From a plasmid, in the sequence record NZ_CP072340.1: DNA of 64,000 nucleotides; one strand, given 5' to 3'. Numbering within the stretch: position 1 is the stretch's first letter; each line of letters starts with the position of its first letter. The notes under the pieces are model-generated. The model saw nothing but the letters and a program-made list of their open reading frames with translations. It had not been told where the DNA came from and made no database searches. Of this stretch, positions 16,922 to 46,116 are shown piece by piece. The translations under genes were made by a program, and so were the position numbers.

Positions 16922-16924
16922 ACT

Positions 16925-18871: not shown

Positions 18872-18872
18872 A

Positions 18873-23571: not shown

Positions 23572-23579
23572 AGAAACTC

Positions 23580-23756: not shown

Positions 23757-23955
23757 AACTAAATAGAATAAAGTTTATACTTGGCTCGGTATTCTCCGAA
23801 CCGTTAATTAAAATTTGGATGTCAGAGTTTCGCACGATGTGCATATTAACAGACATTCAATTGCAATATTACGAAAAGAAAACGAGAAAAACAAATTTTT
23901 CGCCACGTTTTTTGCGATTTCCATTATTTTGTGTCGTTTTTCATAATGAAATGAC

Positions 23956-23963
23956 TATCTTTG
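23956..23963 (+). promoter_or_regulatory. TAtcTTTG -7 box about 150 bp inside the right end of element A, reading outward toward the junction
   Basis: Read directly from the sequence. The same box is at 44997-45004 in the same relative position in element B. Confidence 0.3.
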
Positions 23964-24074
23964 CAACTATAAATTAAGTGTTCATTGAAGCATTGCAAAA
24001 TAAAGAAAGGGAAAGAAACTCGCTCGTTTCCATCTCGTAACCCATTTACCCTTTATTCATTCTTATTTTATTGA

Positions 24075-28808: not shown

Positions 28809-28901
28809 AATAATATGCTTTAATTAAAGAAAAGTGAAAAAGGTCAGAAGATACTCGTGCTACCTCCCGACCAATTCTGTTCCTCTTTGTTTCTGTCGGG
28901 A

Positions 28902-30047
28902 TTATCTCTCTCGTTGTTTTCCTTTCCTATTCTCAAACTCAAATGCAGTGGTACAGTCGTCCTGCAATACCAGTCGGGCATTGAACTTCTTACCAGCCTT
29001 GCTGGTCAAGCCATTGAGGACGGGCGTCCGACCTGTGGTTATCAAATCTCGGATATTGCCCTCTGTAAGAAGCGTTCCACAGACCTCACGAAATATATGA
29101 AAGTCGCAGCCCTCGTGTCTGCATTTGGCGACTTTGGTATAAATGCCCACACTTTCGTTACCACATTTAGGGCAGTGGTAGGTGGGATAAGACTTCTGCA
29201 CCTGTGGAGCAAGGGCAAGGAGTTCCTCGCAGATAGTGCCGACGTATGAGTTGATGCCTTGCGCGAACTTCTCCGCCGGCATTTGTCTCGCCTCGATAGC
29301 GGCAAGAGCCAGTTCCCAACTGCCAGTCATCTCCGCATTGGCAATCTTCTTGTCCTTGACAATCTCATAGACTGACAAGCCTTTTTCGGTAGGTATGATA
29401 GCTTTCTTATTCCTACGGATATAGTCACGGAGAATAAGCGTTTCGATAATGTTGGCACGGGTTGCAGGTGTGCCGATACCGCACTCTGCCATCGCCTTCT
29501 TGCTTTCAGCATCTTCGACATCTTTCCCAGCGTTCTCCATTGCAGAGAGCAGAGTTGCTTCTGTGTAGAGTGGTTTCGGCTTGGTCTTATGCTCGGTAAT
29601 CTCTGCATTGAGAAGTGACAGGACTTCACCTTCCGTTAAGCTGGGCAGGGCGGATAAGGTCTGTTCCTCGTTTTCCTTTCCATTTTCATTTTGAGTGTCA
29701 GCGCCTTGCTGCACGTCTTTCCAACCCAAAGAGATTTGTCGGCACGCCTTCCAAGTAAAGGTATTGGTGCCGTCCGTGAACTTCACCTGCATACGTTCTT
29801 CCTCTGAGTCGGGAGAGAAAGCCTCTAAAAAGCGAGTTACTATCATTTGATAGATGGTCGCCTCGTCCACCGACAAGCCCGAAGGGGTTTCTCCTGTGGG
29901 GATAATAGCGTGGTGGTCGGTAACTTTTGCATTGTCCACAGAATGGCGGTTAAGCGGATTGGATAGCGCCTTGTCTATCTTGCGAAGCAGGACGGGTACT
30001 TCCTCAAAGACATCCTCACTGATGTATCGGCTGCCTGTACGGGGATA
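28902..30047 (-). pseudogene. topB: 3' portion of the DNA topoisomerase III gene (resumes at ...YPRTGSRYISEDV; C-terminal Zn-ribbon CPKCG...C..C), separated from its 5' part by element B
   Basis: My own translation upstream of the listed ORF (28902..29939) continues in frame to the junction: I-N-Y-P-R-T-G-S-R-Y-I-S-E-D... This matches the topo IA active-site block that the 5' fragment (45137..46096) lacks. Confidence 0.85.
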
Positions 30048-30346
30048 GTTTATAGAATAAAGACAATGAAAGAAGAAAGGACAAACAAAAACGAAATCTG
30101 CTGAATAATAGCAATTTATGCACTTTATTGCTTTTTATGGAATGGCAAGGATAGGCGAAAAACGGCAGGAGTTCCGTTACCAAATCGTAACCCAACAGGG
30201 AAAAAGCAAAAATGGGTTACGAATCGAAGCTAAACAACTGTGTCATAGGTTTTTATTCCTCATCTTTCATTTTTTTGCATCGCTCTGGAGCACTTGAATG
30301 TATGTACCTTTGCATGCAAAGGAAATTTAGAAAAAACGACAGAGAA

Positions 30347-31567
30347 ATGAAAGAAAACAAACTGAAAGTGTCGTTCTTCGTTCAAGCAGGACGAGCGGAC
30401 AAAAAAGGCATGGTGCCGCTTATCGGACGGATAGAACTAGGCAGGAGGCATTCCGCCTTTTCCGCCAAAAAGAAAATCCCATTGTCTCTTTGGGACAGCA
30501 GGAAGCAACGTCTTCTCGGCAAGAGTGCCATCGCAAATTCAATCAACCGGTATTTGAATGAATGCACCGCACTCGTTCACGCTCGTTATCGGGAACTCTG
30601 CGAAAGGGGAGAGACATTCTCGGCTGCGGACGTGCGCAATGCCTATCAGGGACAGCTTTGTCAAAATGCAATGCTTTTAGAGTGTTATGCTGAATACCTC
30701 AGACAGATTGAGGAAAGAGTGGGCATAGACCGGGCTATGAAAACTTTGGAGCTGCGCACCTATCAGCAAACGCTTCTTCGGGAGTATGTGCGGAGGAAAT
30801 ACAAGTTAAGTGATATTCCGCTTATGGAGTTGGATATTTCCTTTATAGAAGGCTATGAATACTTTCTGACAATAGACAGGAAACTGAAGCGTGGCAGCAT
30901 ATGCAGTGCCTTGTCTGCCTTAAAGGCGGTCGTGAACAAGGCAGTCAAAAATGGCATGACAGACATGTATCCGTTCATTAGCTACAGTTACGAGAAACTG
31001 AAAGGAACACCGAGAAACATCACGCAGGACGACCTGCAAAAGATTATCGATCTGCCCATCAGATGGGAGAAATACCGTGTCGTCCGTGATTTGTTCGTGT
31101 TCTCCTGCTTCAGCGGTCTTGCAATTTCGGACATACGCAATCTCAAAGAGGAAAACATCATCCTTGAGGAAGGCAGGCTATGTATCAAAAACAAGCGTGT
31201 CAAGACCAAGACTCCTTTTCGCGTAGTGGTTCTCCCTCCTGCCAAGACCATTATGGAAAGATACAGGGGCATACGTGCAGGATATGTGTTTGACGTTCCC
31301 ACAAGAGACGTGGTTTACAATGCAATGCACTACATACAGAGAAGCATCGGTATGGAAGCTCCGCTGACCTTCCACATGGCCCGCCATACCTTTGCATCGG
31401 TCATCACCCTGTCGGCGGGTGTCCCGATAGAAACCGTAAGCGGTATGCTGGGGCATACCAATTTGAGAACGACACAAGTGTATGCAGCGGTCAATTCCGA
31501 AAGAATCAGACAGGATATGCAGAAGATTCAACTGCAGATAGAACACACATTCACCTTAAAATTATAG
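30347..31567 (+). CDS. Tyrosine recombinase / integrase (element B, first of tandem pair)
   Basis: Homolog of intA1; ...HMARHTFASVITLSAGVPIETVSGMLGHTNLRTTQVYAAV. Start at the conserved ATG (MKENKLKVSFF...). Confidence 0.9.
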   Translation: MKENKLKVSFFVQAGRADKKGMVPLIGRIELGRRHSAFSAKKKIPLSLWDSRKQRLLGKSAIANSINRYLNECTALVHARYRELCERGETFSAADVRNAYQGQLCQNAMLLECYAEYLRQIEERVGIDRAMKTLELRTYQQTLLREYVRRKYKLSDIPLMELDISFIEGYEYFLTIDRKLKRGSICSALSALKAVVNKAVKNGMTDMYPFISYSYEKLKGTPRNITQDDLQKIIDLPIRWEKYRVVRDLFVFSCFSGLAISDIRNLKEENIILEEGRLCIKNKRVKTKTPFRVVVLPPAKTIMERYRGIRAGYVFDVPTRDVVYNAMHYIQRSIGMEAPLTFHMARHTFASVITLSAGVPIETVSGMLGHTNLRTTQVYAAVNSERIRQDMQKIQLQIEHTFTLKL

Positions 31568-31570
31568 CTT

Positions 31571-32833
31571 ATGGCACGCAGCACATTCAGGACATTGTTC
31601 TACATTAACCGTTCCAAACTGAAGAAGAACGGCAAATGCCCGATAATGGGGCGAATCACCATAGACGGGCAGCAGGTACAATACAGCATGGGGCTGGAAA
31701 TCAATCCTGACAATTGGGACGCAAAGCATGGCAGATGCAAAGGCGACCTTGACGAAATGAAGAGCATCAACCGCATACTGACAGAAAAGGAAGGACAGAT
31801 GCAAGCCAAATACAATGAGCTGGTCTGGCAAAAGGGGTACGTGAGCGCAGAACTGCTCAAAAGCAGGCTGATGGAGGATTCACAAAGCAATGGCATGCTC
31901 ATAGAAGAGGCAGACCGTTTTATAGAGGAAAAACGCCCTTGTGCAGGAGTGACCATTGCACAATCCACTTTTCGCAACTACATCTATGACAGGCAACTCA
32001 TAGTGTCGTTTCTGCAGGATAAATTCGGGGTGTCGGATATTTGCTATTCACGGTTGGATTATGGCTTTATAGAGGAATTGGACTTCTACCTGAAAAGCAA
32101 GCGCGGACTGTCATCCGCCACCATTCAGATGACGGTTGTCTTCCTGAGAAAGCTCATAGGCATCGGGCAACGGAAAAAATACATCCGCCGAGACCCGTTT
32201 GTGGATTTCAAGGCGGAAAAGCCACACGGCACGAGAAGGTATCTTACAACGGAGGAGCTCAACCGCATTTTGCAAACGCCCATTATCAACAAGCAGTTCG
32301 AGCGGGCAAGGCAACTCTTCATTTTCTGTGCCTTCACGGGATTGGCTCGTGTGGATATGCTGCGACTGACCCCAAGGCATATCCACCATTATGATGACGG
32401 AACTTGTGAGATACGCATCAAAAGGCAAAAGACGGACGTGGAAGCCATCATTCCACTTCTGCCCATCGCAAAGGAGATACTTGATATTCATATAAAAGGG
32501 AAGCAACCCGATGAGTTGATATTTCCTACATTGAACGTCAGCAAGGCCTCTTTCGCCTGTATAAACATTGGTCAGATATGCCAGATAGAGAATGGCTTGA
32601 CTTTTCACATGGCTCGCCACACTTTCGCCACGACCATCTGCCTTTCCAACGGTATGGCAATGGAGACGCTCAGTAAGATGCTCGGACACAGCGACATTGG
32701 TACGACACAGATTTATGGAAAAATTACCGACCTGAAAATCAGAGAGGATATGAGCCGATTGCAGGAGCGTGAAAACAAGGCTTTTTCTGATTACACCGAA
32801 TCCATAGAACGACAAGTGGCATCAACATTTTAG
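31571..32833 (+). CDS. Tyrosine recombinase / integrase (element B, second of tandem pair)
   Basis: Homolog of intA2; ...HMARHTFATTICLSNGMAMETLSKMLGHSDIGTTQIYGKI. Confidence 0.9.
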   Translation: MARSTFRTLFYINRSKLKKNGKCPIMGRITIDGQQVQYSMGLEINPDNWDAKHGRCKGDLDEMKSINRILTEKEGQMQAKYNELVWQKGYVSAELLKSRLMEDSQSNGMLIEEADRFIEEKRPCAGVTIAQSTFRNYIYDRQLIVSFLQDKFGVSDICYSRLDYGFIEELDFYLKSKRGLSSATIQMTVVFLRKLIGIGQRKKYIRRDPFVDFKAEKPHGTRRYLTTEELNRILQTPIINKQFERARQLFIFCAFTGLARVDMLRLTPRHIHHYDDGTCEIRIKRQKTDVEAIIPLLPIAKEILDIHIKGKQPDELIFPTLNVSKASFACINIGQICQIENGLTFHMARHTFATTICLSNGMAMETLSKMLGHSDIGTTQIYGKITDLKIREDMSRLQERENKAFSDYTESIERQVASTF

Positions 32834-32854
32834 AAATCAACAAATACCTACAAA

Positions 32855-33325
32855 ATGAATACAGATAATAATACAAAGGAACTTTCCTACTTTCAGTTGA
32901 AATTAAGAAGTTATATGAGTGAACATCACCCCGAAAGGTTACAAGATACGGAGTTTATCACAGCACGGGCAGATATGGCTCTGACCACTTACTGCGATGC
33001 TGTGGCGCAGGGCTTCACGCACCCCGAGGCGGAGAGCATGGCAAGCGAGGTTTTGTACCAGGGCTTGCATCTCTCCAAGTACGATACGCTTGTATCTGTG
33101 TTGGAAAACGAATTTGAAAGGGAACTGCCTGCTCCGCTCCCAGAGAAGCTCGCACCCATATTGTTATCGAATGAGGCTGTTCAAGCCACATTCGACAAGT
33201 TCGGTTTGACGGACATATTTGCCGCAAGCGGACAATACGACCGCCTTTACACCGAACTAACAGGCACGATAGTGCTGCTCATTGAGAGCAATAATCTGCC
33301 GACAGTCGGTCAGACAGACAGATAA
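32855..33325 (+). CDS. Conserved hypothetical protein (DUF1896-like), homolog of 15505..15972
   Basis: 156 aa, collinear with the element A protein. Confidence 0.4.
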   Translation: MNTDNNTKELSYFQLKLRSYMSEHHPERLQDTEFITARADMALTTYCDAVAQGFTHPEAESMASEVLYQGLHLSKYDTLVSVLENEFERELPAPLPEKLAPILLSNEAVQATFDKFGLTDIFAASGQYDRLYTELTGTIVLLIESNNLPTVGQTDR

Positions 33326-33426
33326 AACGTATGTCTGCATCTTATAAACAGCCTCATGCAAAGCCCTGAAACCGTAATCGGTCGGGCAAAGGTATGACGG
33401 TAGCCTTTACTTACTTGCAAGGTCGA

Positions 33427-33470
33427 GTCCTGCGGATGGAGCGAAAAATCTCCACCGCAGGGCTTTTCTC
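33427..33470 (+). terminator. Rho-independent terminator (gtcctgcggatggagcg...tctccaccgcagggc followed by ttttctc)
   Basis: Homologous to the element A terminator. Confidence 0.65.
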
Positions 33471-33674
33471 TGCACTTTGATACAGTCATACTTGCAAAAA
33501 CTAATCTTTTGTGCGGTCGTATTTTTCGCTCCAACCTTGCAAAAGTAGGCTAACCTCCAAAGGAAAATGCCCGAACGAATACGGCATACTCAGGCTCTTT
33601 GGACGCAAGCGATAAAACAAATATTCTACCTGTCAACCGCACGGACGATTGGTCAATCTCTCTGTAGTTCGGTA

Positions 33675-33775
33675 GAGAACTCTCACTTTCGTTCAATATA
33701 TCTATCGTTCGGACAATCTATTTCTCGAACAATAGAACGTTCGATATGTCGAATAATCGAATGTTCGAGAGTTAG
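33675..33775. repeat. 16-bp-phased TCG-core repeat array (tatcgttcggacaatc / tatttctcgaacaata / gaacgttcgatatgtc / gaataatcgaatgttc)
   Basis: Read directly from the sequence; positional equivalent of the element A iteron array. Confidence 0.4.
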
Positions 33776-34017
33776 TTGCTTACATTTTCGCTGAAATGGA
33801 ACGAACCGACACCTCATCTCATTACCGCAATCATTTATATCTCCCCATTGTTTTTGTCTTTTACACATCACGTTTTCCTTTGCCTTCCCTCTGTTTCCCT
33901 GCTTTTCTCTGTCCCTTTTTTCTATGCCGTCATAGGCTTACCTTTGCACACGATAATAACGGCAACAGACTGTATATGAGTTTGTTTGCTAAGTAATAAC
34001 AACGTAATCAAAACAAA

Positions 34018-34296
34018 ATGAATGCAATGAAACTTATCATTATTGACCGCAAGGCATGGGAGCGACACTGTTCCGACTTTACAGATCTTATCCACCGTAT
34101 CGAACAGCTTATCGGCAATCCGCCTGAAGCGGACGAATGGCTCGACAATGAAGCCGTATGTCGCAGGCTCGGCATCAGCAAGCGCACCCTGCAATCCTAT
34201 CGGGACACAGGCAAGATCCCTTTCTCTATCATTGGGCATAAATGCTATTATAAGGAAAGCGACATCACAGAGTTACTGAACTCAAACACTAAATAA
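34018..34296 (+). CDS. HTH_17 / excisionase-family small DNA-binding protein (Xis-like)
   Basis: Homolog of 16652..16921. Confidence 0.6.
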   Translation: MNAMKLIIIDRKAWERHCSDFTDLIHRIEQLIGNPPEADEWLDNEAVCRRLGISKRTLQSYRDTGKIPFSIIGHKCYYKESDITELLNSNTK

Positions 34297-34299
34297 ATT

Positions 34300-34614
34300 A
34301 TGGCAGAGAACGAAATCATTACACAGCAAGACCCTCAGATGCAGATGTTTGCACAGTTAATGGAGGGCATATTGAAGAAATTGGAGCGTTATTGCTCTAC
34401 AGCCCGTCCGATGTTAGGCGGAGAGGTTTACCTCACAGGAGAGGAGGTTTGCAAGCAGTTACGGCTGAGTCCCCGAACCCTTCAGGACTATCGGGACAAC
34501 GGTACGATTGCCTACTGCAAAATCGGAGGGAAGATACTCTACAGGCAGAGCGATATACAGGCTATGCTTGAAAGACATTATAACCCGATATCCAAGAAGC
34601 CATGGCAAGTGTAA
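34300..34614 (+). CDS. HTH_17 / excisionase-family small DNA-binding protein (Xis-like, second copy)
   Basis: Homolog of 16925..17239. Confidence 0.6.
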   Translation: MAENEIITQQDPQMQMFAQLMEGILKKLERYCSTARPMLGGEVYLTGEEVCKQLRLSPRTLQDYRDNGTIAYCKIGGKILYRQSDIQAMLERHYNPISKKPWQV

Positions 34615-34619
34615 AGGAG

Positions 34620-34712
34620 CAGAGAGTGAACGTTTCGGGATATGTGGAGCAGGTGCTTCGGGAACACCTTGGCCAATACAAAGATGATGTGGAAAGATGG
34701 CGGAAACTCTGA
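34620..34712 (+). pseudogene. Deletion remnant (last approx 30 codons) of the DUF3408-like gene that is present in element A
   Basis: gtttcgggatatgtggagcaggtgcttcgggaacacc...gatgatgtggaaagatggcggaaactctga aligns with the 3' end of 17227..17733. The upstream approx 400 bp are absent. Confidence 0.5.
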
Positions 34713-34808
34713 AGTACTGAATTCTTCGAATGCAAGCCTGCGCAGAGTTACCACATTCACAGAATGCAGTAACACAGCAGGGGCTTATCAATCTCTTTCT
34801 TGCTACAG

Positions 34809-34905
34809 CAGCAAGGTGTGTCTTTGTCCGACAAATTGCCATTTGTATCACAAATACCCTTGCCCCGAAGGGGGATTAAATCACTCCAAAGTCGTGATTA
34901 GATAG
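34809..34905. other. Putative oriT of element B
   Basis: gcaaggtgtgtctttgtccgacaaattgccatttgtatcacaaatacccttgccccgaagggggattaaatcactccaaagtcgtgattagat; homologous to the element A and CTn oriT-like blocks. Confidence 0.5.
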
Positions 34906-34925
34906 CAAACAAAACAACTAAGATT

Positions 34926-35354
34926 ATGCCCAAATTAGAAATAGCCAATAACAACCGTTACGGACACCGAAATACCGTAGAAGTGCCACGCTGGGACAGA
35001 TGGGACACCCGTATGCCCGATGTAAAAGACCAGTTGCGTGCCATTGACCTGTACAACAAGTCGGGTGCGGTGAGCAAGTCCGATTTTGTTCGCGCCCGAA
35101 TACTCGGAGAGAGTTTCAAGGTGATAACAGTAGATAGGTCCGTCGTGGAGTACCACCGCAAGCTCTCTGAACTTACAGTCCAAGTACATAAGATAGGCAC
35201 AAACTACAATCAGGTCGTACGCTTAATGCACCTTTATACGGCAGAGAAAAGCATACAGGCATTGTTGCGGGAGCTTATTGGTTTGACAAAAGAACTCACT
35301 GCCTTGCAAGAGAAAGCAGTGAGTTTAACCATTGACTATCGGGAGAGATTATGA
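34926..35354 (+). CDS. MobA-like relaxosome accessory protein
   Basis: Homolog of 17944..18369 and of the CTn mobA at 55914..56333. Confidence 0.6.
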   Translation: MPKLEIANNNRYGHRNTVEVPRWDRWDTRMPDVKDQLRAIDLYNKSGAVSKSDFVRARILGESFKVITVDRSVVEYHRKLSELTVQVHKIGTNYNQVVRLMHLYTAEKSIQALLRELIGLTKELTALQEKAVSLTIDYRERL

Positions 35355-35542
35355 AAGTATTAACATTACGCTCTTTAGAGCCAGGTATTTTGTGATTGAA
35401 ACAGAAAGCCATATTGTGGTATGACTTTCTGTTTATTGCTACTACAATATGTCATAGGGGGAGACCTTTGCCATGATTTCTAAGCCATATACATAACTTT
35501 GTTCGTCTGTTGTCAGAGATTTAGTTTCATAACAAGCAAGAA

Positions 35543-37066
35543 CTATCTTCTCGGAGTGTTCACTAGTGTTTTATATGCATCAATCAGCCCGTATCCGAAA
35601 TCGTTATTCCAAGAACCATTCTTTTTAATCACAGAATAATCGACTGTTATTTTTTTCGTGTTCTTTTCAATAAGATCGTTCACTTCCGTAACTCGCAGAG
35701 ACGGATTCCTTTCCAATATCAAGGCTGCTAATCCTGCCACATGGGGACATGCCATGGAAGTTCCATCCATTTCTCCGGTCATGTTGTTGGGCATGGTCGA
35801 CAAGATGTCGCTTCCCGGAGCCACAACGTCCAGTTTTTCCCCAACATTTGAGTATGGAGCCAAACTGCCTGTCTTCTCTATCGCACCAACAGCGATAATG
35901 GTGTCGTTGCAGTTTGCGGGATAACTGACAGGACGTCTCCAGTCATTTCCGGCTGCAAACACGATGACACAGCCTTTTCCTTCTCTGCCATACTTGAAGG
36001 CATTGTATATCGCCTGGTTAATGGCGGCGTGTTGTGTGGAAGAACCCCAAGAGTTGGAGATGACATCCACTCCGTTTCTCCATGCCCAATTGATGCCGTC
36101 AGCCCTTCTTATGCGACTGTTGGTGGTACCGTGTAAAGAGTTGCTGATGGAAACAAGTTTCGCGTCCGGGGCGACACCTGCCACATGTATGCCATTGTTC
36201 CTTACTGCCGCGGCAATCCCTGCACAATGTGTGGCATGATCACCATACAATATGCTTGGGGAGGTGTTGGTTTCCGTGTCATAACTCAAGCTTGAGACAT
36301 TTTCTACGAGATCAATATGGTCCATGTCAATTCCCTGATCCAACACGCCTATCTTGATATTTCGTCCGGTGGCATAATTCCATGCGGCGCACGCTGAAAT
36401 ATCCATATCCGCGTAGTTGGAATTATACAGCCCCCATTGACTTCCGACCAACGGGTCATAGGAACAATACAGGTCATTTGAAGAGAAATCCGCGACGGAT
36501 GATGCGAACAGCCCCGTCTCATACAATTCATTTGCCACCTCCAGGGATGTTTTTCCCGTGTTGGGTGTTATGGAAAGAATATACCACCGTGGCATGAATT
36601 TGTCCTGTTCCGTAATGACAAGGTTGTATTCCATCGCTTTTTCCCGCAACAAAGAATAGTCTGATTCTTTCTTCAATTCCACATTGAGATAATTGGTCAA
36701 AACCAATTCATCCCCGTACTCGTTCTTATAGCATGGAAGTACCATGGCATTGTCTGCCTCTGCCGCTTCTTTCATGGTCTTCAACAGCGATGGCGGACCT
36801 TCATTTCCCCTGCCAGCTTCATATACGGTTATGTCGTATATGTTGTCTTTAATGGTTTGGGAGACTTTAAACCCTGAAGATTCTTTTGCAGGTTGGAAAC
36901 TTGCCCCCTTTTTATTACCTTTTTTATCCTTTACTACGCAGACTTTTCGCGCATTTTCCGCAATGTAAATTTTATTGCCATTGAAGTAATAATATGCCGA
37001 TTGGGAAATGGCTTCTGAGGCAGTGATTGACACCAGTGCCATGAATAATAAAATCCTTTTCATCAT
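35543..37066 (-). CDS. Secreted S8-family subtilisin-like serine peptidase
   Basis: Asp block GVLDQGIDMDH, His block GDHATHCAGIAAAV, Ser block GTSMACPHVAGLAALI; N-terminal signal peptide. Confidence 0.9.
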   Translation of the reverse strand: MMKRILLFMALVSITASEAISQSAYYYFNGNKIYIAENARKVCVVKDKKGNKKGASFQPAKESSGFKVSQTIKDNIYDITVYEAGRGNEGPPSLLKTMKEAAEADNAMVLPCYKNEYGDELVLTNYLNVELKKESDYSLLREKAMEYNLVITEQDKFMPRWYILSITPNTGKTSLEVANELYETGLFASSVADFSSNDLYCSYDPLVGSQWGLYNSNYADMDISACAAWNYATGRNIKIGVLDQGIDMDHIDLVENVSSLSYDTETNTSPSILYGDHATHCAGIAAAVRNNGIHVAGVAPDAKLVSISNSLHGTTNSRIRRADGINWAWRNGVDVISNSWGSSTQHAAINQAIYNAFKYGREGKGCVIVFAAGNDWRRPVSYPANCNDTIIAVGAIEKTGSLAPYSNVGEKLDVVAPGSDILSTMPNNMTGEMDGTSMACPHVAGLAALILERNPSLRVTEVNDLIEKNTKKITVDYSVIKKNGSWNNDFGYGLIDAYKTLVNTPRR

Positions 37067-37211
37067 ATTCTAAATTTAAGAATTAAGACTGTCTGTTATA
37101 TAAAAATCCTCCGTATTTATATTCTGCCCATGCAAACAAGCTGTGATCCTGACGGAACTAAGGCATGCCGCATGGACAGAATGTCAACTGTCTGTTACAG
37201 GCGTACTACCG

Positions 37212-38501: not shown

Positions 38502-38582
38502 ATTAAGCTCCTTTCTTTGAATTAATTTATTAATATTAAGGTCTGAACTACCGTATGGGGAAGTCTGCAAAAGACCGTAAAA

Positions 38583-40073
38583 TCAGCGACGGGGTGTATT
38601 GACAACGGCTTTATAGGCATCTATCAACCCATAGCCGTAATGTTCGTTCCAGCTTCCGAATGCCTTGTTGGTGTCGTATGCGTATGTCCCGATTTTCTTC
38701 GCATTCTTTGCGATGATTTCCCTAACTTTATAAGCAGAAAGTTGGGGATTGCGTTCAAGTATCAAGGCAGCCAATCCTGCCACGTGCGGAGCCGCCATGG
38801 ACGTTCCTCCCATATATGTAACTGCATTTCCGGGTACTGTTGACAGAATATAAGTGCCCGGAGCCGTAACGAACATGTTCGACCCGTAGGCAGAGGTTGT
38901 CGAAAGCGTCCCGTCCTGTTTCATATTTGCAACAGCTATCACTTCCGGACGATAGTCTCCGGGGAAGGAGATAGGACCGCTTGTATTGCCTGCCGACTTC
39001 ACAAACACGCATCCTCGACCTTCTCGACCTCTTGACAGAGCCAAGTCGATTGCCTCCTTGACTATATCCTTATCGGAACACCACCATGAGCAAGAGATGA
39101 TATCCGCACCATGCTGCCAAGCCCAATTTATTCCATTCGCCAGATTGCTTTCCAATTCAGTTGAACCAGACAGGGTGTTGCTGACAGACATTAAGGTGGC
39201 ATCCGGGGCTACTCCTGCCACCTGTATCCCGTTATTCCTTACAGCTGCTGCAATTCCTGCACAATGTGTACCATGGGCACCGTAAACCTTGCTGGGAGAG
39301 CTTTTTGTTTCCGTATCATAACTCAAACTGCTGATATTGTCAGCCAGATCCTGATGGGCAAGATCTATGCCTTGATCGACAATGGCAATCGTGATGCCGC
39401 GCCCTGTTGAGTATCCCCATGCCCGGCTGACAGAAATATCCATCCCTTCATATGTCGAGTTGTACAGTCCCCATTGATTGAGGACGTTCGGATCATAGGA
39501 AATTTCAAGGGCATCGAAAGAGAAGCCCGGCGAGGAAGATGCAAACTTTCCGGATTCATATATCGAGTTTGCCACCACTACTGCATCTCTTCCAGAGGTT
39601 TCCGATAACCTCAGGCTATACCATAGTGGCATAAAGGGATTCTGCCCTATAATTTCACAGTCGTATTGTCTTGCAGTACTTTGCAGAGCCGGATAATCTT
39701 TTTCCGATTTCAGCTTTACATCGATATATCCTGTCGGGATAAGTTCCTTTCCGTCCTCAGTTACGAAGCAAGACTGTATGGAGACAGGATTGGAGACTGA
39801 AGCGTATGCAAGCGATTTGACTGTTTGGGCTGTCATAGAAGACCTAACCTTATAAACTTCTATTTTGCTTCTGCTGTCTGAAATATTCTTTTCAAATTGC
39901 AGATTACAATTGTTGACACTCGCATTGCCGGCGAGAGGGGAGATTACTACAATTTTGGAAGCATTTTCCGTCAGAGGAATCCGTTTCCCATCATAATAAT
40001 AAAATGCATCCTGAGCATAGGACACTATATTCACAGCCAATGCGAACAAAAGAAATATGATTGTCTTTTTCAT
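38583..40073 (-). CDS. Secreted S8-family subtilisin-like serine peptidase (paralog of 35543..37066)
   Basis: GAHGTHCAGIAAAV, GTSMAAPHVAGLAALI, DQGIDLAH. N-terminus MKKTIIFLLFALAVNIVSYAQDAFYYYDGKRIPLTEN parallels the other subtilase. Confidence 0.9.
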   Translation of the reverse strand: MKKTIIFLLFALAVNIVSYAQDAFYYYDGKRIPLTENASKIVVISPLAGNASVNNCNLQFEKNISDSRSKIEVYKVRSSMTAQTVKSLAYASVSNPVSIQSCFVTEDGKELIPTGYIDVKLKSEKDYPALQSTARQYDCEIIGQNPFMPLWYSLRLSETSGRDAVVVANSIYESGKFASSSPGFSFDALEISYDPNVLNQWGLYNSTYEGMDISVSRAWGYSTGRGITIAIVDQGIDLAHQDLADNISSLSYDTETKSSPSKVYGAHGTHCAGIAAAVRNNGIQVAGVAPDATLMSVSNTLSGSTELESNLANGINWAWQHGADIISCSWWCSDKDIVKEAIDLALSRGREGRGCVFVKSAGNTSGPISFPGDYRPEVIAVANMKQDGTLSTTSAYGSNMFVTAPGTYILSTVPGNAVTYMGGTSMAAPHVAGLAALILERNPQLSAYKVREIIAKNAKKIGTYAYDTNKAFGSWNEHYGYGLIDAYKAVVNTPRR

Positions 40074-40081
40074 TGCAAATA

Positions 40082-41011
40082 CTATTTAATGATTATTTTC
40101 TGTGTATAAATTGATTTGCCCTTCTTTGTCAAAGTGCAAATATATATGCCTTTTGAAAATTGAGGCACATCGATGTTCTTTGCCGTCACGGACGAGGAGA
40201 GAACTTTCTGTCCGTATATATTGAGAATGTCAATGTGGTCGCAGTTCGCTATGGAACTCAACTCTATCGAGCCGTTATGGTATGCCATACGGATAGTCTG
40301 CTTGTATTCAATATCGTCAATACCGGTTTCTTTGAGATTGATGACGGGACGAATGGGAAGACCGATTGTTCTCTTGCTAGATCTTCTGCCAACACTGCCT
40401 GAATCGTAATCTATATCTTTGGCTTTCGTTATAAGATCATCAGGATCTCCTTCTGCTCTATGAAGCGTTCCGGTCCAACAATATCCTTTCCAATTCTGGT
40501 TACGATATGTTGTCCCTTGATATGTAGCAGCGTATCCGGCAGCAGGAAGAAACAGGGTGTTTTCATTTGCACCATAATGGAAGCGTCTGCCCCAAATGCC
40601 GTCCACTTCCTCCCATTTATTCCAGCAGAGTCTCACGAGTTCCCCTACCTCCTCAAAAGTAGGCAGGCGCCATCGTCCGCCCCATTTTACCCTTGCTGCA
40701 TCGTATTCCGTCCCGCAGATATTTTCTCCGATATTCGTGCATAACGTGTAATAGGCAACTCCGGGAATCTCCTTGTATCCTTCAAAGAATTTGTAATTCT
40801 CATTAGTATATTCCTCTTTAGGCTCTGTCTCTCCCCATGCAAAGTAGTCTCCGAAATCTATGGAAGACTCAGCGCCGATGTTGCAGGTTGCCCACAGGGT
40901 ACCGCTGGGCAATCCCATGTCCACATACTCATGACCGTCTATGACGTTTGTCTGCGCATGGGAAACAGAAACGAGTAGGATGCTTAATATGGATGTAAAA
41001 AGAAATCTCAT
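40082..41011 (-). CDS. FISUMP-like (Fibrobacter succinogenes major paralogous) domain protein with T9SS C-terminal sorting domain
   Basis: PSGTLWATCNIGA...YFAWGE...GGRWRLPTFEEVGELV resembles the FISUMP W/CP-GWRLPT-EE signature. C-terminus ...FSKGIYICTLTKKGKSIYTQKIIIK. Signal peptide present. Confidence 0.5.
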   Translation of the reverse strand: MRFLFTSILSILLVSVSHAQTNVIDGHEYVDMGLPSGTLWATCNIGAESSIDFGDYFAWGETEPKEEYTNENYKFFEGYKEIPGVAYYTLCTNIGENICGTEYDAARVKWGGRWRLPTFEEVGELVRLCWNKWEEVDGIWGRRFHYGANENTLFLPAAGYAATYQGTTYRNQNWKGYCWTGTLHRAEGDPDDLITKAKDIDYDSGSVGRRSSKRTIGLPIRPVINLKETGIDDIEYKQTIRMAYHNGSIELSSIANCDHIDILNIYGQKVLSSSVTAKNIDVPQFSKGIYICTLTKKGKSIYTQKIIIK

Positions 41012-41078
41012 ATCATATGAATTTTATAAGGAGTAGGTTCAGGCTGAAATTAGCCAATCCTACTCCTTGGTCTATGAT

Positions 41079-42686
41079 TTACTTGACGAAAATCTTTTTC
41101 GTTTCCATACCATTCTCATATGTGACTGAGAAAGCGTAAACACCGCCGTTCTTTATGTTTAGAGAATTCAAAGCGAGTGTGACGGAAAAGGCATTCACTT
41201 TTACCGAACTTAGTTTGACACCGGACATGTCATACACTTCCAATTTGCTCATCTTCCTTCCTGATGAAATCGTTATGTCTGAAATTAGAACAGCAGGACA
41301 CGGGGTAATGGAAAGTTGAGAGTCCCGTTCAATCTTTGAAACGTCTGTTGTGCCGTTCTGCTTTGCCTGTGCGGGAGCAAGGAAGGCGGACACATTCGCA
41401 TCATTGCTTACACGGGCAAGAATATTGCAAGCCGATTCTGGCTTGAATGAACTGTAATTAGATACATGTATGCCCGTCGTTTCAACAAAGTATCTCTGAC
41501 TGATGTATGAATCCCTATTGCTTAGGTTATATTGGTTGAGCTTTGCATAAGGACCATCATCGTTAAATCCGACCACATTTTCTGCATCATTTCCTTCAAT
41601 GAAGAGCATGGGATCGTCAGTGCCGGGAGTATTGCAATTCGTCATAGTCGCATACTCGTGACCGTCTGCCGGTATTTCACACTTACAATTCGAAAAATAT
41701 ATCGGAGCGTTCTCATAGAAGTAATTGCCATTGACATTCAAGTCCGCCACACTCAGCACTCCATTGCCAGCACTCCGTAGTTTTATCAGATACATTCCTG
41801 TTTTCGGTATCGTGACTTTCAGTGTTGCGATTTGATTATTAGGGTTATTCAGAGCCTTTTCTGAGAGATGTCCCCAATTGAGCCCCTGCATCTCTTCCGA
41901 TGTAGCAGGAGTGTAAAAAAATCGTGGTTTCATATCTCCAATTGGAATTGTGGGGAAAAGACCCTCTTGAGGGGAATTAGCGGGGAAAAGTATTTGTTTC
42001 CCATAATAGACCATATCTATTTTATGAGCTATTCTACTTGTGGAAGTTATAAAAATCTCTTGACCTTTCGTGAAAGAGAATGTCCGATAGAAAGAATATT
42101 TCAACGGCACATGTGTAAAATACTTAATGCCCGCAGCATCACGTGAATCACTTTCCGTCATTTCCGCCATGCTTACATCTGGAGTGCCATCTGATGAGAC
42201 GGCTTTTCGCAGGTATGAGTTAAAACCGGCGGACTGAAATCTCGTTGCCATCATGTTCCGTGATATTTTGACGGACTCTACGTTTGGCACTTCGGGGGCA
42301 TTGGTTGCAATTGATATTGTGTTAATGCCGTTTTTAAGTTGCAGGGCAGGTTTCGCTTCAACGGAAGCAGACTGCCAGTTCCCAACGGTTGGCTTAACCG
42401 AACCGGAAAGCGTGCCGTTCACATACACCTTGAATGTGGTGAATTTCCCGTTGGCATACCTTGTCGGCTGAAGCCAAAAATTAACGTAATAATCACCTGC
42501 TTCAAATGCCTGAACCTCAAAGTTTTTGTAATTTAGCACATTGTCTGTCGTTTCATACATACTTTTGATCTCTAAAACATTGTTTGAAGTCAAAGGTTTG
42601 CTCTCATTTCTCTGTGCATTTGCATGTTGTACAGGAAAAGTCGTTGTTAATGCACAGAATACTGTCATGAATAAAATTTTTCTCAT
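41079..42686 (-). CDS. Secreted protein with candidate T9SS C-terminal sorting domain (function unknown)
   Basis: Signal peptide MRKILFMTVFCALTTTFPVQHANA; C-terminus ...NGGVYAFSVTYENGMETKKIFVK. Confidence 0.45.
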   Translation of the reverse strand: MRKILFMTVFCALTTTFPVQHANAQRNESKPLTSNNVLEIKSMYETTDNVLNYKNFEVQAFEAGDYYVNFWLQPTRYANGKFTTFKVYVNGTLSGSVKPTVGNWQSASVEAKPALQLKNGINTISIATNAPEVPNVESVKISRNMMATRFQSAGFNSYLRKAVSSDGTPDVSMAEMTESDSRDAAGIKYFTHVPLKYSFYRTFSFTKGQEIFITSTSRIAHKIDMVYYGKQILFPANSPQEGLFPTIPIGDMKPRFFYTPATSEEMQGLNWGHLSEKALNNPNNQIATLKVTIPKTGMYLIKLRSAGNGVLSVADLNVNGNYFYENAPIYFSNCKCEIPADGHEYATMTNCNTPGTDDPMLFIEGNDAENVVGFNDDGPYAKLNQYNLSNRDSYISQRYFVETTGIHVSNYSSFKPESACNILARVSNDANVSAFLAPAQAKQNGTTDVSKIERDSQLSITPCPAVLISDITISSGRKMSKLEVYDMSGVKLSSVKVNAFSVTLALNSLNIKNGGVYAFSVTYENGMETKKIFVK

Positions 42687-42929
42687 GTCTTAAAACTTTT
42701 ATTATTAATAACTTGCCTATATTCCCTTTTATGGGATACTGACAATTTCATATCATTCAAAATGATAGATTGTACAGAAATTTTGCTGTCAACAAATATG
42801 AATAAATTTGTAACAGATAAAAATTATTTTGCTTTTATTTATGCTTTGGATGAAATTGATTATTATTTTGTTCTCTTTTGTTTTTTACAAACTCCTTGCA
42901 AGGGACTTCATAAATACAGAGGCTAACTA

Positions 42930-44066
42930 TCATACAGATAGAAGCACTGTTCCATACGAGAACCTTCCACTCTCCGGTACAAGAAGAAGTATCTTGTTTC
43001 CACGTTTAATTTCTTTTGTCCTTATGAGCTCTTCCAGTGCCACATAAATGGCAGCCGAACCGATGTTGCCTACAGAAGTAAGGTTTGTAAACCACTTCTC
43101 TTTTGTCAGAGCAATGTTACGAGCAGCAATTTCGTCATTTAACTTCTCATAGAAAAACATTGATGATACATGAGGTATAATATAGTCTATCTCATCTGCT
43201 TTTATATGATGTTTGGCAAGTATGGTTTCGATATGGTCAACCCAATACTTAATAATGTGCTTCTTTAATTGCCGTATGTCCTGTTTGCCCACAAGTACGG
43301 CACGCTCCTTAATCTCATCAGGAGAGAACTCCTTCCAGCTTTTGAGCCGTCCGTTTTCTTGCAACTCCGATGCCATAAACATACAGGTAGGTAGTTCGTT
43401 GGCATAGGAAGTCATATCGACCCATTCGATTTTGAGTGGGCATGTTCCTTCGGGATGATCTTGCACCAATACCGCTCCTGCACCATCAGAAAGCATAAAC
43501 CGCATAAAATCCTTCTCAAAAGCCATATAAGGGTCTTTGTCAGGATTGTCATGTGTAGCTTCATACTCCGGGTCATAAAATTTGGATACCAATGCAGGTG
43601 AGGTTAATTCTGATGCCACGCATACAGCTTTTTGATGCAGTCCTGCAAGAATATTGCTATAGCATATTTTCAATGCCTGCAATGAGGTAAGGCATACACC
43701 TGCAGAGGAAAATATTTCCATAGGATAGTTGGCTAATTCTCCATGAACCATAGACGCATGGGAAGGAAGCAATTGGTCGGGTGTGCTTGTCCCACAAGCC
43801 AATAATGTCAGGTCATTTGGAATTTGTCTATTCTCAAACAGCCCACATACGGCTTCTTTTGCCAATTCTGCATTCGAGTGTGTTAGGCTTTGGGTTTTGT
43901 CCAACCCGTAATATCTCGTTTTGATGCCATTTTGTCTAAGGACAATGGAACGAACCCTTGACGGATTTCCACCAATTTTCCCAATATAGTCCTCCATATC
44001 CTCATTGACGATGGGAGAATTAGGAAGATATGCCGATACGCTATTGATATATACTGCTTTTTCCAT
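42930..44066 (-). CDS. KAS III (FabH)-like / thiolase-fold condensing enzyme
   Basis: 378 aa; candidate active-site Cys in SSAGVCLTSLQAL; FabH-like length and layout. Confidence 0.6.
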   Translation of the reverse strand: MEKAVYINSVSAYLPNSPIVNEDMEDYIGKIGGNPSRVRSIVLRQNGIKTRYYGLDKTQSLTHSNAELAKEAVCGLFENRQIPNDLTLLACGTSTPDQLLPSHASMVHGELANYPMEIFSSAGVCLTSLQALKICYSNILAGLHQKAVCVASELTSPALVSKFYDPEYEATHDNPDKDPYMAFEKDFMRFMLSDGAGAVLVQDHPEGTCPLKIEWVDMTSYANELPTCMFMASELQENGRLKSWKEFSPDEIKERAVLVGKQDIRQLKKHIIKYWVDHIETILAKHHIKADEIDYIIPHVSSMFFYEKLNDEIAARNIALTKEKWFTNLTSVGNIGSAAIYVALEELIRTKEIKRGNKILLLVPESGRFSYGTVLLSV

Positions 44067-44073
44067 AGGAATA

Positions 44074-44700
44074 TTATTTGGTTATTAAATAGTATATTGT
44101 GTATATTTGCTCTTTCAATTCGGAAATGGAAAGTTGGCTGCTCAATGCACTTCTGTATGACAATCCAAGATATATATTTCTAATGGAAGATATAATCTTT
44201 TCTGTTTCCACAGTTTGAGTAATCTCTCCTTTCTGTTTGGCAAGCTCTATCACCTCTTTCCACTCAAGGCTCTTTCTTTTCTCGTATTCTTGAAACTTCT
44301 CTTTCCAATCCGGATAGTTGTCTTTCAGATACAAGATAAATGACATGAAATTGGCAGGAGTGACTGTGCCTTTTGTCATTATAAAAAATGATTTCATACG
44401 GCGACCGATGTTTTCTACACGATTATCAATGAAGTCCTTTAATGGTGTCGAGCTTGTAAGTTCAAGAAAGTCTGTAGCATCATTTGTCAAGAATTCAAAT
44501 ACAAACCTATCAACGGCATGACTGAATATATCCTCCTTATTCTTGAAGTGATGAAACATATTGCCACGAGAAATGCCGGTCGCTTCCACTAAATCCGAAA
44601 ATGATACTGCTGCATAACCTTTTTTCAGAAACAGCCTGAACGATTCATTAAGGATAATGTCCCTTTTGCTTATGCTTTCTTTAACTATTTGTTTTTCCAT
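44074..44700 (-). CDS. TetR-family transcriptional regulator
   Basis: N-terminal HTH RDIILNESFRLFLKKGYAAVSFSDLVEATGISRGNMFHHFKNKEDIF; start moved to MEKQIV.. (44700). Confidence 0.8.
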   Translation of the reverse strand: MEKQIVKESISKRDIILNESFRLFLKKGYAAVSFSDLVEATGISRGNMFHHFKNKEDIFSHAVDRFVFEFLTNDATDFLELTSSTPLKDFIDNRVENIGRRMKSFFIMTKGTVTPANFMSFILYLKDNYPDWKEKFQEYEKRKSLEWKEVIELAKQKGEITQTVETEKIISSIRNIYLGLSYRSALSSQLSISELKEQIYTIYYLITK

Positions 44701-44996
44701 TATTTCATACTTGCTAAATTCAAAACAGAACGTTTGTTCCGTGCTTATAAGTGCAATATTATGCAAATTATTTCAATCCGCCAAATATTTCGGGGGATTT
44801 TTCTTCAAAAAGTTTCATTTCTCTCTTTTTTTTTCATTTTACAATAGAAAAATAGTTGTTTCTATTCATTTTTGCTGATTAGGCAATAAGGCTAAAAAAT
44901 CCTGACAAATTACCTCCATTAAAATTAGTTGGTAATGATTTTAAGTGCTCCTACAAATTATTTCCGTAAAAACACACTGCTTTCATCAGAAAATAT

Positions 44997-45004
44997 TATC
45001 TTTG
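44997..45004 (+). promoter_or_regulatory. TAtcTTTG -7 box about 150 bp inside the right end of element B, reading outward
   Basis: Read directly from the sequence; conserved with 23956-23963. Confidence 0.3.
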
Positions 45005-45136
45005 CACTATCAATTTAAGTGTTCTTTGGGGCGTTGTAGAATAAAGAAGGGAAAAGAAACTCGCTCGTTTCCAACTCGTAACCCATTTATCCTTTATTCA
45101 TCCTTATTCTATTGATTATCTGAAAGATACAAAATT

Positions 45137-46096
45137 CTAAAATCTTTTGCGGGGATAGGTCGTGATTTTCTTCTCATAGAGGCTCTGGGCAATCGAGAGG
45201 GTCTTGTCTGCTGAAAAGCCGTGGCGTCTGTTGGCTTCTTTCTGCAAGGCAGTAAGGTCGTACAAGAGTGGTGGTACGGTATGTCCCACCTGTTTTGCGA
45301 CCGACTCTACTTTAAGCCGGCTCTGACTGCGGAGCGCAGCGAGAGCTGTCTGTGCCGATGCTTTATCCTCATAGTCTTCACAGCCAACGGCTTTCAGCGA
45401 CACGCCCTCTTTCTCCATCAGGGCGGAGAGTTTCCAATAAGGCACGGAAGAAAAATCACGGTTCTCTATGTATCGACGGCAGACCATAGCGAGGGTTGGA
45501 GTCTGTACCCGTCCCAACGAATAGCCTCCCCTGCGGGCAATGGAAAGGGCACGGCTCGCATTGATTCCCACGAGCCAGTCGGCTTCGCTTCTTGCCTTGG
45601 CGGAATAATAGAGACTGTCGTAATGGCTTCCGGCCTTGAGATTAGAAAGCCCCTCACGGATAGCTCTGTCCGTGAGTGAAGAAATCCAAAGGCGGTCGAA
45701 GGGTTTTCGGCAATTGAGATAGGAATAGATGTATCTGAAGATAAGCTCACCCTCCCGACCTGCATCGGTAGCAACGATGATGCGGTCAACCTTGTCAAAG
45801 CAGGATCGTATCACCTTGAGCTGCTTGAGTGCTGCTGGGTCGGATATATAGTCCTTATCCTTACGTACTTGTCGTACCACTAACTGAAAAGGATTGGGAC
45901 GGATGGGTAGATCTTCAGCTTTGTAGGCAGAAAAACCATAGGTTTCGGGCATGGCAAGGGCGATGAGGTGTCCCATTGCCCAAGTAACGAGATAACCGCA
46001 ACCTTCCAAGCATCCGTCCTGCTTACTGTTTGCTCCGACAATGCGGGCAATGTCTCTGGCTACCGAGGGCTTCTCGGCAATAATACAAGTTGTCAT
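45137..46096 (-). pseudogene. topB: 5' portion of the DNA topoisomerase III gene (Toprim N-terminus; truncated at the catalytic Tyr: ...KKITTYPR then element-derived KRF*)
   Basis: MTTCIIAEKPSVARDIARIVGA... is a Topo IA Toprim start. It ends inside the conserved (S/T)YPRT active-site motif. The last approx 13 nt plus the stop codon lie in the element B end. Confidence 0.85.
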
Positions 46097-46116
46097 AGTC
46101 TGAAATCGTTTTAAGG

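Follow-up and report, generated by a model that had tools for sequence, protein, structure and literature searches.

A 15.1-kb element at the catalytic-tyrosine codon of a conjugative-transposon topoisomerase gene in oral Prevotella

How does a backbone gene of a conjugative transposon (CTn) come to be split within the codons for its active site, and what is the DNA that splits it? The question arises in a 64,000-nt stretch of the plasmid record NZ_CP072340.1 from oral Prevotella (the whole stretch is called the window here), where a type IA topoisomerase gene on the minus strand is interrupted by a 15,110-bp insertion, which we call element C. A preliminary description had proposed a ~15-kb insertion at this position, made by a tyrosine recombinase and flanked by a 9-bp direct repeat. 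Our answer is that the 15.1-kb segment is very probably an integrative and mobilizable element (IME) of a tandem tyrosine-integrase family, with the DNA for the T-Y-P-R motif of CTn topoisomerases as its preferred attachment site.

The split gene, its empty site and the nine-base-pair core

The features on which the argument rests are as follows.
45150..46096, minus strand: 5′ fragment of the topoisomerase gene (codons 1-316, ending Y314-P-R), from translation and Pfam
28902..30039, minus strand: 3′ fragment of the topoisomerase gene (TGSRYISEDV... to the stop), from translation and Pfam
30049..45149, plus strand: element C, a relaxase-less integrative element, absent from the public contig L001, its ends homologous to those of a sister element, B
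30040..30048, no strand: left copy of the core CGGGGATAG (attL)
45150..45158, no strand: right copy of the core CGGGGATAG (attR)

Pfam matches the 5′ fragment to Toprim and to positions 3-163 of the Topoisom_bac profile, and the 3′ fragment to positions 161-409 of the same profile and to a C-terminal Toprim_Crpt repeat. The two Topoisom_bac ranges abut and thus mark the fragments as colinear halves of a single type IA topoisomerase. Joining them at the repeat yields a protein of 694 residues, where ~700 had been anticipated, and this is ~100% identical over 100% of its length to an intact protein, P0001 (694 residues), found by a search of 5.8 billion proteins. Intact homologues at 91-98% identity number at least 120 and come from oral Prevotella, those with species names being from P. 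intermedia, P. nigrescens and P. denticola. The joined protein also matches Escherichia coli topoisomerase III structures (E = 6e-72), and Y314, the tyrosine of TTYPR, aligns with the catalytic tyrosine of the E. coli enzyme, Y328 in its ITYPR motif. The earlier proposal that the repeat encodes the active-site Y-P-R is thus borne out.

As it stands, the open reading frame (ORF) of the 5′ fragment runs from 46096 to 45137 on the minus strand and encodes 319 residues with the C-terminus ...KKITTYPRKRF* (...LYEKKITTYPRKRF*), the same ending that was first read there; its final three codons (KRF) and the stop derive from the element end. This product is labelled 'hypothetical protein' in public annotation (Prevotella nigrescens F0103, ELX66474.1). 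The 3′ fragment reads ...INYPRTGSRYISEDV... (...SINYPRTGSRYISEDVFEEV...) to its stop at 28902, and an in-frame start codon is absent upstream of the junction. In the integrated state, neither a full-length topoisomerase nor a full-length helicase (the product of the neighbouring gene, which element B splits) can be made. Judging from the truncation at codon 316, loss of topoisomerase function would be a cost to the host CTn.

An uninterrupted version of the same locus exists. The metagenome contig L001 (3455 bp), which encodes P0001, is an empty site with a single copy of the 9-mer in a backbone 99.8% identical to that of the window. Its positions 1-1297 correspond to window positions 46446..45150 (99.9% identical) and its positions 1289-3455 to window positions 30048..27882 (99.7%). 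The overlap of the two alignments is exactly the 9-mer, and the contig reads ...acgaCCTATCCCCGtacagg... (...aaaatcacgaCCTATCCCCGtacaggcagcc...) across the junction. Because this empty site lies in a 99.8%-identical element, the 15,110-bp segment is a true insertion and not ancestral backbone.

The repeat CGGGGATAG is present just twice in the window with both strands counted (0.27 expected from shuffles), and the minus-strand junctions, acgaCCTATCCCCGcaaaag and ataaaCTATCCCCGtacagg, are exactly those first quoted. On the gene strand the core is C-TAT-CCC-CG and takes in the third base of the T313 codon, the complete Y314 and P315 codons, and two of the three bases for R316. The inserted DNA includes one core copy and can be written as 30049-45158 or, equivalently, 30040-45149. 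The right end reads ...AATCTTTTG-CGGGGATAG, and TCTTTTG, the left neighbour of the core, belongs to the element: the right ends of element C and of relatives at two public loci, L057 and L114, all finish ...TCTTTT(G/A)CGGGGATAG. Relatives at secondary sites have only (G)GGATAG or TGCGGGGATAG in common with the core, and the secondary site of L057 has CTTTGCGGGGATAG flanking both sides. Since the core and its left neighbour are element-borne and the secondary sites resemble the core, the 9 bp are a recombination core rather than a transposition duplication. The crossover itself is likely to fall within ~GGGATAG, to judge from these sequences.

The circular form can be reconstructed from the two ends as an attP of ...AATCTTTTG-CGGGGATAG-TTTATAGAAT..., a deduced sequence that shares the 9-bp core with the gene. 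Two sets of features near the ends are candidate recombinase-binding regions or are conserved among relatives.
30185-30194 (direct), 30213-30222 (inverted) and 45076-45085 (third copy, ~65 bp from the right core), no strand: TCGTAACCCA motif, candidate arm-type integrase-binding sites from a motif search
44990..45149, plus strand: conserved right-end arm of element C, ending ...TTGATTATCTGAAAGATACAAAATTCTAAAATCTTTTG, ~90% identical to the element B right end up to AATCTTTT, with the same end in L057 and L114
The pair of TCGTAACCCA motifs at 30185..30222 coincides with inverted repeat I20, and of the eight matches to this motif in the window, six are at the termini of B and C, where their arrangement is alike.

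Site preference across public loci

If the topoisomerase codon is a preferred attachment site, related elements should be found there in other genomes, and two surveys bear on this. In the first, species-representative genomes were scanned with an integrase-1 alignment, which gave 72 loci spanning Prevotella, Hoylesella, Segatella, Hallella, Alloprevotella, Porphyromonas and Phocaeicola; loci with enough upstream sequence were taken as informative, and six of these were C-type. Five of the six (L005, L006, L047, L073 and L074) adjoin a topoisomerase 3′ fragment starting TGSRY, with the junction ...CCTGT(A/G)CGGGGATAG|TTCATAGAATAA. The exception, L057, lies at an unrelated site, where the flanking sequence CACTTTGCGGGGATAG mimics the right end of the element itself. 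The second survey scanned metagenomes with the C-type left-end sequence and found 45 contigs (41 informative), with 33 in the topoisomerase gene at the identical position and 8 elsewhere, at the secondary sites described above. C-type relatives therefore occupy the same topoisomerase codon in 38 of the 47 informative public loci (about 80%).

The occupied alleles can differ from that of the window down to ~76% DNA identity. For example, the first kilobase of the element is 99.9, 99.7 and 99.8% identical between the window and L108, L120 and L091, respectively, and the adjacent 400 bp of the topoisomerase gene are 76.7, 78.5 and 80.2% identical. The converse case also occurs: L113 and L120 are 98.8% identical in the flank and 88.8% in the element. 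Near-identical elements (99.7-99.9%) in alleles that are 77-80% identical mean that the insertions are independent, and the junctions are reproduced across independent assemblies.

Targeting of a conserved stretch had been compared with the homing of introns and inteins. The targeting part of this idea stands, given the same codon in 38 of 47 loci and the divergence of the alleles, and the comparison is an analogy only, as nothing splices. A homing intron or intein was considered and rejected: intein, intron reverse-transcriptase and homing-endonuclease domains are absent, and the host ORF stops three codons into the element.

One topoisomerase gene is occupied twice in tandem: in L078 (minus strand, ~4797-4935), another GGATAG-containing site of the 3′ fragment, only ~75 bp from the C-type insertion, holds a second element, whose right end is similar (...AAATCTTTACGATGGATTGGATAG).

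Gene content, mobilization module and sister elements

Element C has a GC content of 0.33-0.47, down from ~0.50 in its flanks, and carries the following genes and sites.
30347..31567, plus strand: integrase 1, 406 residues from MKENKLKV (a longer ORF starts at 30212); Pfam Arm-DNA-bind_5, Phage_int_SAM_5 and Phage_integrase
31571..32833, plus strand: integrase 2, 420 residues; Pfam Arm-DNA-bind_5, SAM-like and catalytic domains
32855..33325, plus strand: DUF1896 protein (Pfam E = 5e-59), 86% identical to the element B copy
34018-34296 and 34300-34614, plus strand: two small HTH_17 / excisionase-like proteins; Pfam HTH_17 on the second, the first being its paralogue by ORF scan
34810..34902, plus strand: 93-bp non-coding block just upstream of mobC, candidate origin of transfer (oriT) or MobC operator
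34926..35354, plus strand: MobC_2 relaxosome accessory protein (Pfam E = 2e-37)
35543..44766, minus strand: cargo, from Pfam and NCBIfam

The two tandem tyrosine integrases (a 'Tyr duo') start ~300 bp inside the left junction, which together with the element-borne core agrees with the tyrosine-recombinase insertion first proposed. A Bacteroides-type TAnnTTTG promoter-like motif precedes integrase 1. Identity between the two proteins is only ~30%, and the catalytic H-x-x-R, H and Y residues are conserved in each. Where the first catalytic arginine would canonically stand (G-x-A-x-x-D), all six integrases in the window (2324-4859, 12959-15452 and 30347-32833) have alanine, and they share an invariant arginine ~12 residues upstream of it. 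We considered the missing arginine as a sign of inactive integrases and rejected this, as it is common to all six and so a family trait; the combination recalls the IntDOT-type integrases of Bacteroides.

Relaxase, primase, coupling protein and type IV secretion system (T4SS) had no matches among the element C ORFs in Pfam and NCBIfam searches, and the host element has T4SS, coupling-protein and relaxase genes. The MobC of element C is ~62% identical at the protein level to the product of the host mobC (55914-56333), and the 93-bp block that precedes it has a counterpart in the host.
56341..56432, minus strand: host CTn copy of the 93-bp block, upstream of the host mobC (55914-56333) and relaxase (54637-55917)
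The element C and host copies are 87% identical, and the adjacent 140 alignment columns only 33%. Across the host CTn and elements B, C and D (a third lineage, described below) the block is 85-90% identical, and the sequence just upstream 33-42%. Its pattern is ...GCAAGGTGTGTCTTTGT...ACAAA...TTTGT..CACAAA..CCCTTGCCCCGAAGGGGGATTAAATCACTCCAAAGTCGTGATTAGA, and its hairpin folds better than shuffles (z = -3.25). These properties suggest an oriT or a MobC-binding region.

The cargo, ~9 kb on the opposite strand to the core genes, holds the genes for two S8 subtilases, two proteins with sorting tails for the type IX secretion system (T9SS), a DUF6383 protein, a ketosynthase and a TetR regulator. The ketosynthase is a StlD/DarB-family (dialkylresorcinol-type) beta-ketosynthase at 492 bits against an NCBIfam cut-off of 450. 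It and the adjoining TetR regulator lie at 42930-44766 with obvious DarA/DarC partners absent nearby, and a fragment of the same ketosynthase gene is found in the B-type element of L027.

Relatives of element C have the same plan. Ten complete relatives (8-15 kb) share a ~5.3-kb core of int1-int2-(DUF1896)-HTH17-HTH17-(DUF3408)-MobC, followed by variable cargo; DUF1896 is present in most, DUF3408 in some, and both HTH_17 proteins in all ten. None of the ten has a relaxase: nine lack relaxase and primase genes alike, and L011 alone has a frame-broken relaxase remnant after mobC. In L114 (512-13540), a C-type core with 100% protein identity (both integrases, DUF1896 and the two HTH_17 proteins; MobC 94%) is followed by the C39-ABC exporter of element B (91% amino-acid identity) in place of the subtilases, so cargo has been exchanged between lineages downstream of mobC. 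The exact integrase 1 protein occurs on 389 public contigs and that of integrase 2 on at least 1000, and counting MobC as well the exact proteins are on hundreds to at least 1000. A megablast search of PLSDB plasmids with the whole element gave one weak partial match, which was unannotated.

Two sister lineages split the methylase/SNF2-helicase gene next to the topoisomerase gene.
12663..24119, plus strand: sister element B, ~11.46 kb, with junctions in the methylase/SNF2-helicase gene at ...TDYAR
L002 16665-22085, L003, L006 1229-3954 and L047 248-2973, opposite in orientation to the helicase gene: third lineage D, with integrases of 417 and 427 residues, ~38% identical

Element B has a core module like that of C (integrases 72% and DUF1896 86% identical) and carries a C39-peptidase ABC exporter and an outer-membrane beta-barrel protein as cargo. 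The helicase gene that it interrupts spans window positions 11076-28808. The N part (28808..24075) ends ...LIATDYAR plus element-derived residues and is labelled 'DUF2958 domain-containing protein' in public annotation; the C part (12668..11076) starts MTDYARKMSL.... Together the parts make 1567 + 524 = 2091 residues, exactly as many as are found in intact homologues from their 90% cluster. The repeats of element B are imperfect, CCTCGCATAATC on the left and ACGGGCGTAATC on the right. Its right end and that of C are alike through ...AATCTTTT and then differ (ACGGGCGTAATC in B, GCGGGGATAG in C), so the reconstructed attP of B (...TCTTTTRCGGGCRTAATC...) and that of C are homologous. The coding-strand targets also look alike: TAT-GCC-CGC (Y-A-R) for B and TAT-CCC-CGT (Y-P-R) for C.

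B-type elements show a similar preference, with 40 of 56 informative loci, in seven genera, at the helicase site (C fragment starting (M)TDYAR); at the other 16 the flanks vary up to GC(A/G)TAATC. L021 (Segatella buccae) has an intact, uninterrupted helicase gene across the B-type site. This gene (2700-2760) has CTTTCTGGCGTAGTC at the site where the usual form is CTTGCGGGCATAATC, and an occupied second copy lies 5 kb away; synonymous core changes might shield an allele from insertion.

Lineage D is inserted after helicase codon ~1497-1499, at ...TTCTATGCGGA|AGTATGGGAG, and truncated helicases of 1497 and 1499 residues recur in public data. Its DUF1896-to-MobC region has 90% DNA identity to element B. 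As the core matches that of B while the integrases differ, integrase pairs have been swapped onto a shared core.

The host CTn encodes a coupling protein (52550-54553), the relaxase and mobC located above, a ParA-like protein, a VirB4-type TraG (60213-62726) and further tra genes. A third integrase pair in the window (2324-4859) is ~30% identical to the pair of element C, and beside it, at 2024-2040, is an att of the type described for the mobilizable transposons MTnPi1 and MTnPi3 (GATTAG-TTAC-ACATC-AA-AAGCGGCTC, with the palindromic flank AAGCGGCTCTTTTGG). This att and these integrases probably form the left end and the integration module of the host CTn itself, whose other end falls outside the window.

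Two other host regions drew attention. One, at 8540-10989, encodes an AbiEi/AbiEii type IV toxin-antitoxin pair and then a PP2C-family phosphatase, and is bordered by a Toprim/AAA primase-like gene and by the 3′ end of the helicase gene. The region 49354-52062 has a GC content of 0.58-0.59 against ~0.45-0.50 nearby and long overlapping ORFs on both strands (883 and 833 residues), neither of them matched by Pfam; at the homologous position, L002 is only ~66% identical in DNA and encodes a protein of 1221 residues that likewise lacks Pfam domains.

Competing explanations, known systems and significance

Several hallmarks of an IME are seen in element C: its own integrases, a core shared by both sides, an empty site, and a T4SS absent among its ORFs. 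For a relaxosome, a MobC_2 protein and the candidate 93-bp block are present, both predicted from sequence. In the mechanism that we propose, integrases 1 and 2 would carry out conservative site-specific recombination within ~GGGATAG, with the TCGTAACCCA arm sites serving the integrases and the HTH_17 proteins acting as directionality factors. Excision would restore the topoisomerase reading frame exactly, because the core is identical on both sides, and the helicase gene would be restored likewise; the expected junctions are an attP of ...AAAATCTTTTGCGGGGATAGTTTATAGAATAAAG... and a restored attB of ...ATCACGACCTATCCCCGTACAGGCAGC... for element C, and ...AATCTTTTACGGGCGTAATCAGTCATTAAG... and ...CTCATCTTCCTCGCATAATCCGTTGCGATG... 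for element B. Transfer would occur after excision, or as a passenger within the CTn, by the CTn machinery: the element would supply MobC itself, along with an oriT-like block that derives from the CTn lineage, and would borrow the relaxase, coupling protein and T4SS. The conserved active-site codons would then provide a landing site in each incoming or resident CTn of the group together with a built-in ride, and the cargo (secreted subtilases, T9SS proteins and the DarB-type ketosynthase) would be what the element offers the cell.

Several observations weigh against this account. The attP circle junction TCTTTTRCGGGGATAGTTYATAGAATAA was found in neither IMG/VR nor the 120 fetched loci, and the element's right end was the left flank in 0 of the 45 metagenome left-end matches (the flank of L089, ATCTTATGCGGGGATAG, is only similar to the attP junction). 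Excision and transfer are hinted at indirectly, by the empty site and by the near-identical copies in divergent alleles. The element has no relaxase of its own, so its mobilization would rest on the candidate oriT-like block, which could simply be the mobC promoter or operator. In about one-third of the topoisomerase alleles that hold a C-type element, the 3′ fragment is broken or reaches a stop prematurely (L081, L085, L087, L090, L095, L096, L104, L115, L118 and others), so the insertion looks permanent in those lineages. Finally, Hoylesella timonensis and Prevotella brunnea (L006 and L047) share a colinear composite, 94% identical, of D in the helicase gene plus C in the topoisomerase gene, so that the elements may owe much of their spread to passive carriage by the CTn.

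A reading that would supplement the IME explanation is that the nested elements lock the CTn: transfer or establishment would depend on their excision, with CTn competence regained only once the topoisomerase and helicase genes are restored, and the elements would excise, transfer together and re-home into the CTn in a cycle. In favour of this reading, the identical 9-bp core would let excision re-create the ORF exactly, two neighbouring backbone genes are each split by related elements, and the same idea has been proposed for IMEs in integrative and conjugative elements (ICEs) of the Tn5252 family (PMC5704250). CTnDOT requires Exc, a protein with a topoisomerase III domain, to excise and to activate its tra and mob genes, although Exc works in vivo without its catalytic tyrosine (PMC3809561); an equivalence of Exc to the window topoisomerase would be a lead only. 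Among ~30 occupied alleles with enough sequence, 18 keep a full-length open 3′ fragment, with pairwise dN/dS of ~0.1 among the intact ones. We rejected this value as evidence of ongoing selection on the split gene: the elements are often much younger than the divergence of the flanks, and dN/dS is uninformative because most substitutions may predate insertion. The alleles with premature stops also speak against a switch, and the doubly inserted composites at 94% identity between genera suggest that the CTn spreads with its genes split. We regard reversible locking as doubtful. Separately, three contigs break at the same codon 66 of the 3′ fragment, and this shared break may mark a further insertion site.

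It is considerably less probable that element C is an immobile relic, i.e., a decayed mobilizable or conjugative transposon without a relaxase that is carried passively in the CTn. The absence of relaxase and primase, the L011 remnant (which points to relaxase loss in the lineage) and the inheritance of composites together across genera are what such a relic would lead one to expect. However, 99.7-99.9%-identical elements sit in 77-80%-identical topoisomerase alleles, the empty site lies in a 99.8%-identical backbone, catalytic residues are kept in both integrases, and cargo modules have been exchanged on a conserved core (L114); these four points indicate recent autonomous site-specific movement.

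DDE transposons also leave short direct repeats flanking their insertions, but transposition with a 9-bp target-site duplication, like a chance repeat at an ancestral fusion or an assembly artefact, is most improbable here: only tyrosine recombinases are encoded and a transposase is absent, the same 9-mer flanks relatives in dozens of loci and is otherwise absent from the window, its junctions recur in independent assemblies, secondary sites resemble the reconstructed attP, and we rejected a duplication on the ground that the core and its left neighbour TCTTTTG belong to the element.

Elements that split a gene and restore it by precise excision are well known from the skin element in sigK of Bacillus subtilis, the nifD and fdxN elements of cyanobacteria, and phage 'regulatory switches'. 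The skin, nifD and fdxN elements interrupt chromosomal genes that are restored in host development, whereas the gene interrupted here belongs to another mobile element.

The closest known relatives in organization are MTnPi1, MTnPi2 and MTnPi3, Tyr-duo mobilizable transposons of Prevotella intermedia (Naito et al. 2016, PMC4755523; listed in Guedon et al. 2017, PMC5704250). Their circles were detected by PCR, and one copy that had lost its second integrase had lost excision along with it (PMC4755523). Element C resembles them in its Bacteroidota group, in having two tandem, distant tyrosine integrases at one end, in size (~16-18 kb for MTnPi1-3) and in accessory genes (a subtilase-like protease or an ABC transporter). 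However, MTnPi1-3 have a relaxase and a primase and element C has neither. Their att is 11 bp, TTAC/TTGC N5 AA with GATTAG / GATAAT ends, in genes for 'hypothetical proteins' (PMC4755523); the core CGGGGATAG and ends of element C differ from it, and the only MTnPi-type att in the window is the one at 2024-2040. The integrases of element C are ~30% identical to the MTnPi-type pair at 2324-4859, and its target is a CTn backbone gene. We considered membership of the MTnPi1-3 group and rejected it on att sequence, relaxase and primase: element C belongs to a new, relaxase-less branch of Tyr-duo mobilizable elements.

Two P. intermedia CTns, CTnPi2 and CTnPi3, contain several internal integrases with ABC-transporter and TonB-receptor cargo, for which MTn-like insertions were suggested and att sequences were reported unfindable (PMC4755523). 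These internal integrase genes probably represent the same elements as those described here, the cargo matching that of element B. The words 'topoisomerase' and 'helicase' have 0 occurrences in that paper, and boundaries, cores, targets and specificity are defined only in the present analysis.

The lifestyle has a counterpart in Firmicutes, where IMEs occupy genes of Tn5252-superfamily ICEs: IMESp2907 in Maff2, a tet(O) fragment in the SNF2-helicase gene, and Tn6104 and IME_Sco1050 in traG (PMC5704250). A further one, IME_oriT, sits in the oriT of Tn916/ICESt3, and excision of the Tn5252-family IMEs was proposed to restore the conjugation module (PMC5704250). As in those ICEs, one to three elements are found per host, each disrupting a conserved backbone gene, SNF2 helicase included. 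The Firmicutes elements differ in mostly using serine recombinases (IME_oriT uses a tyrosine recombinase) and in usually having their own relaxase or replication genes, and none targets a topoisomerase active site; the present elements are from Bacteroidota, have paired tyrosine recombinases and are relaxase-less. By recombinase and host they fall outside the Tn5252 group, although they work alike. NBU1/NBU2 and Tn4555 are tyrosine-integrase IMEs mobilized in trans by Bacteroides CTns (PMC5704250), but with a single integrase, their own MobP relaxase, and targets at tRNA 3′ ends or a few chromosomal sites rather than in a CTn gene.

Full-text literature searches found no description of a topoisomerase target or of these att sites in Bacteroidota. 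Parasitizing conjugative elements is thus already known in Firmicutes and had not been defined before in Bacteroidota. What is new is the set of defined att sites, with the catalytic-tyrosine codon of the CTn topoisomerase and, for the sister lineages, two sites within the adjacent helicase gene as preferred targets across many genera, and the predicted oriT-like block common to host and elements.

With these results, the 'internal integrases without att sites' of oral Prevotella CTns become bounded elements with defined cores and targets, and split genes currently annotated as 'hypothetical protein' or 'DUF2958 protein' can be recognized as such. The CTn-hunting lifestyle is extended to Bacteroidota with paired tyrosine recombinases, the choice of an SNF2 helicase being convergent. 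Abundance in human oral metagenomes and swappable cargo (secreted proteases, exporters and a ketosynthase) make these elements a relevant route of gene flow. They are also suited to asking whether both Tyr-duo integrases are required and whether nested elements gate host transfer; if the nested elements do lock their host, CTn activation and element release would be mechanistically coupled.

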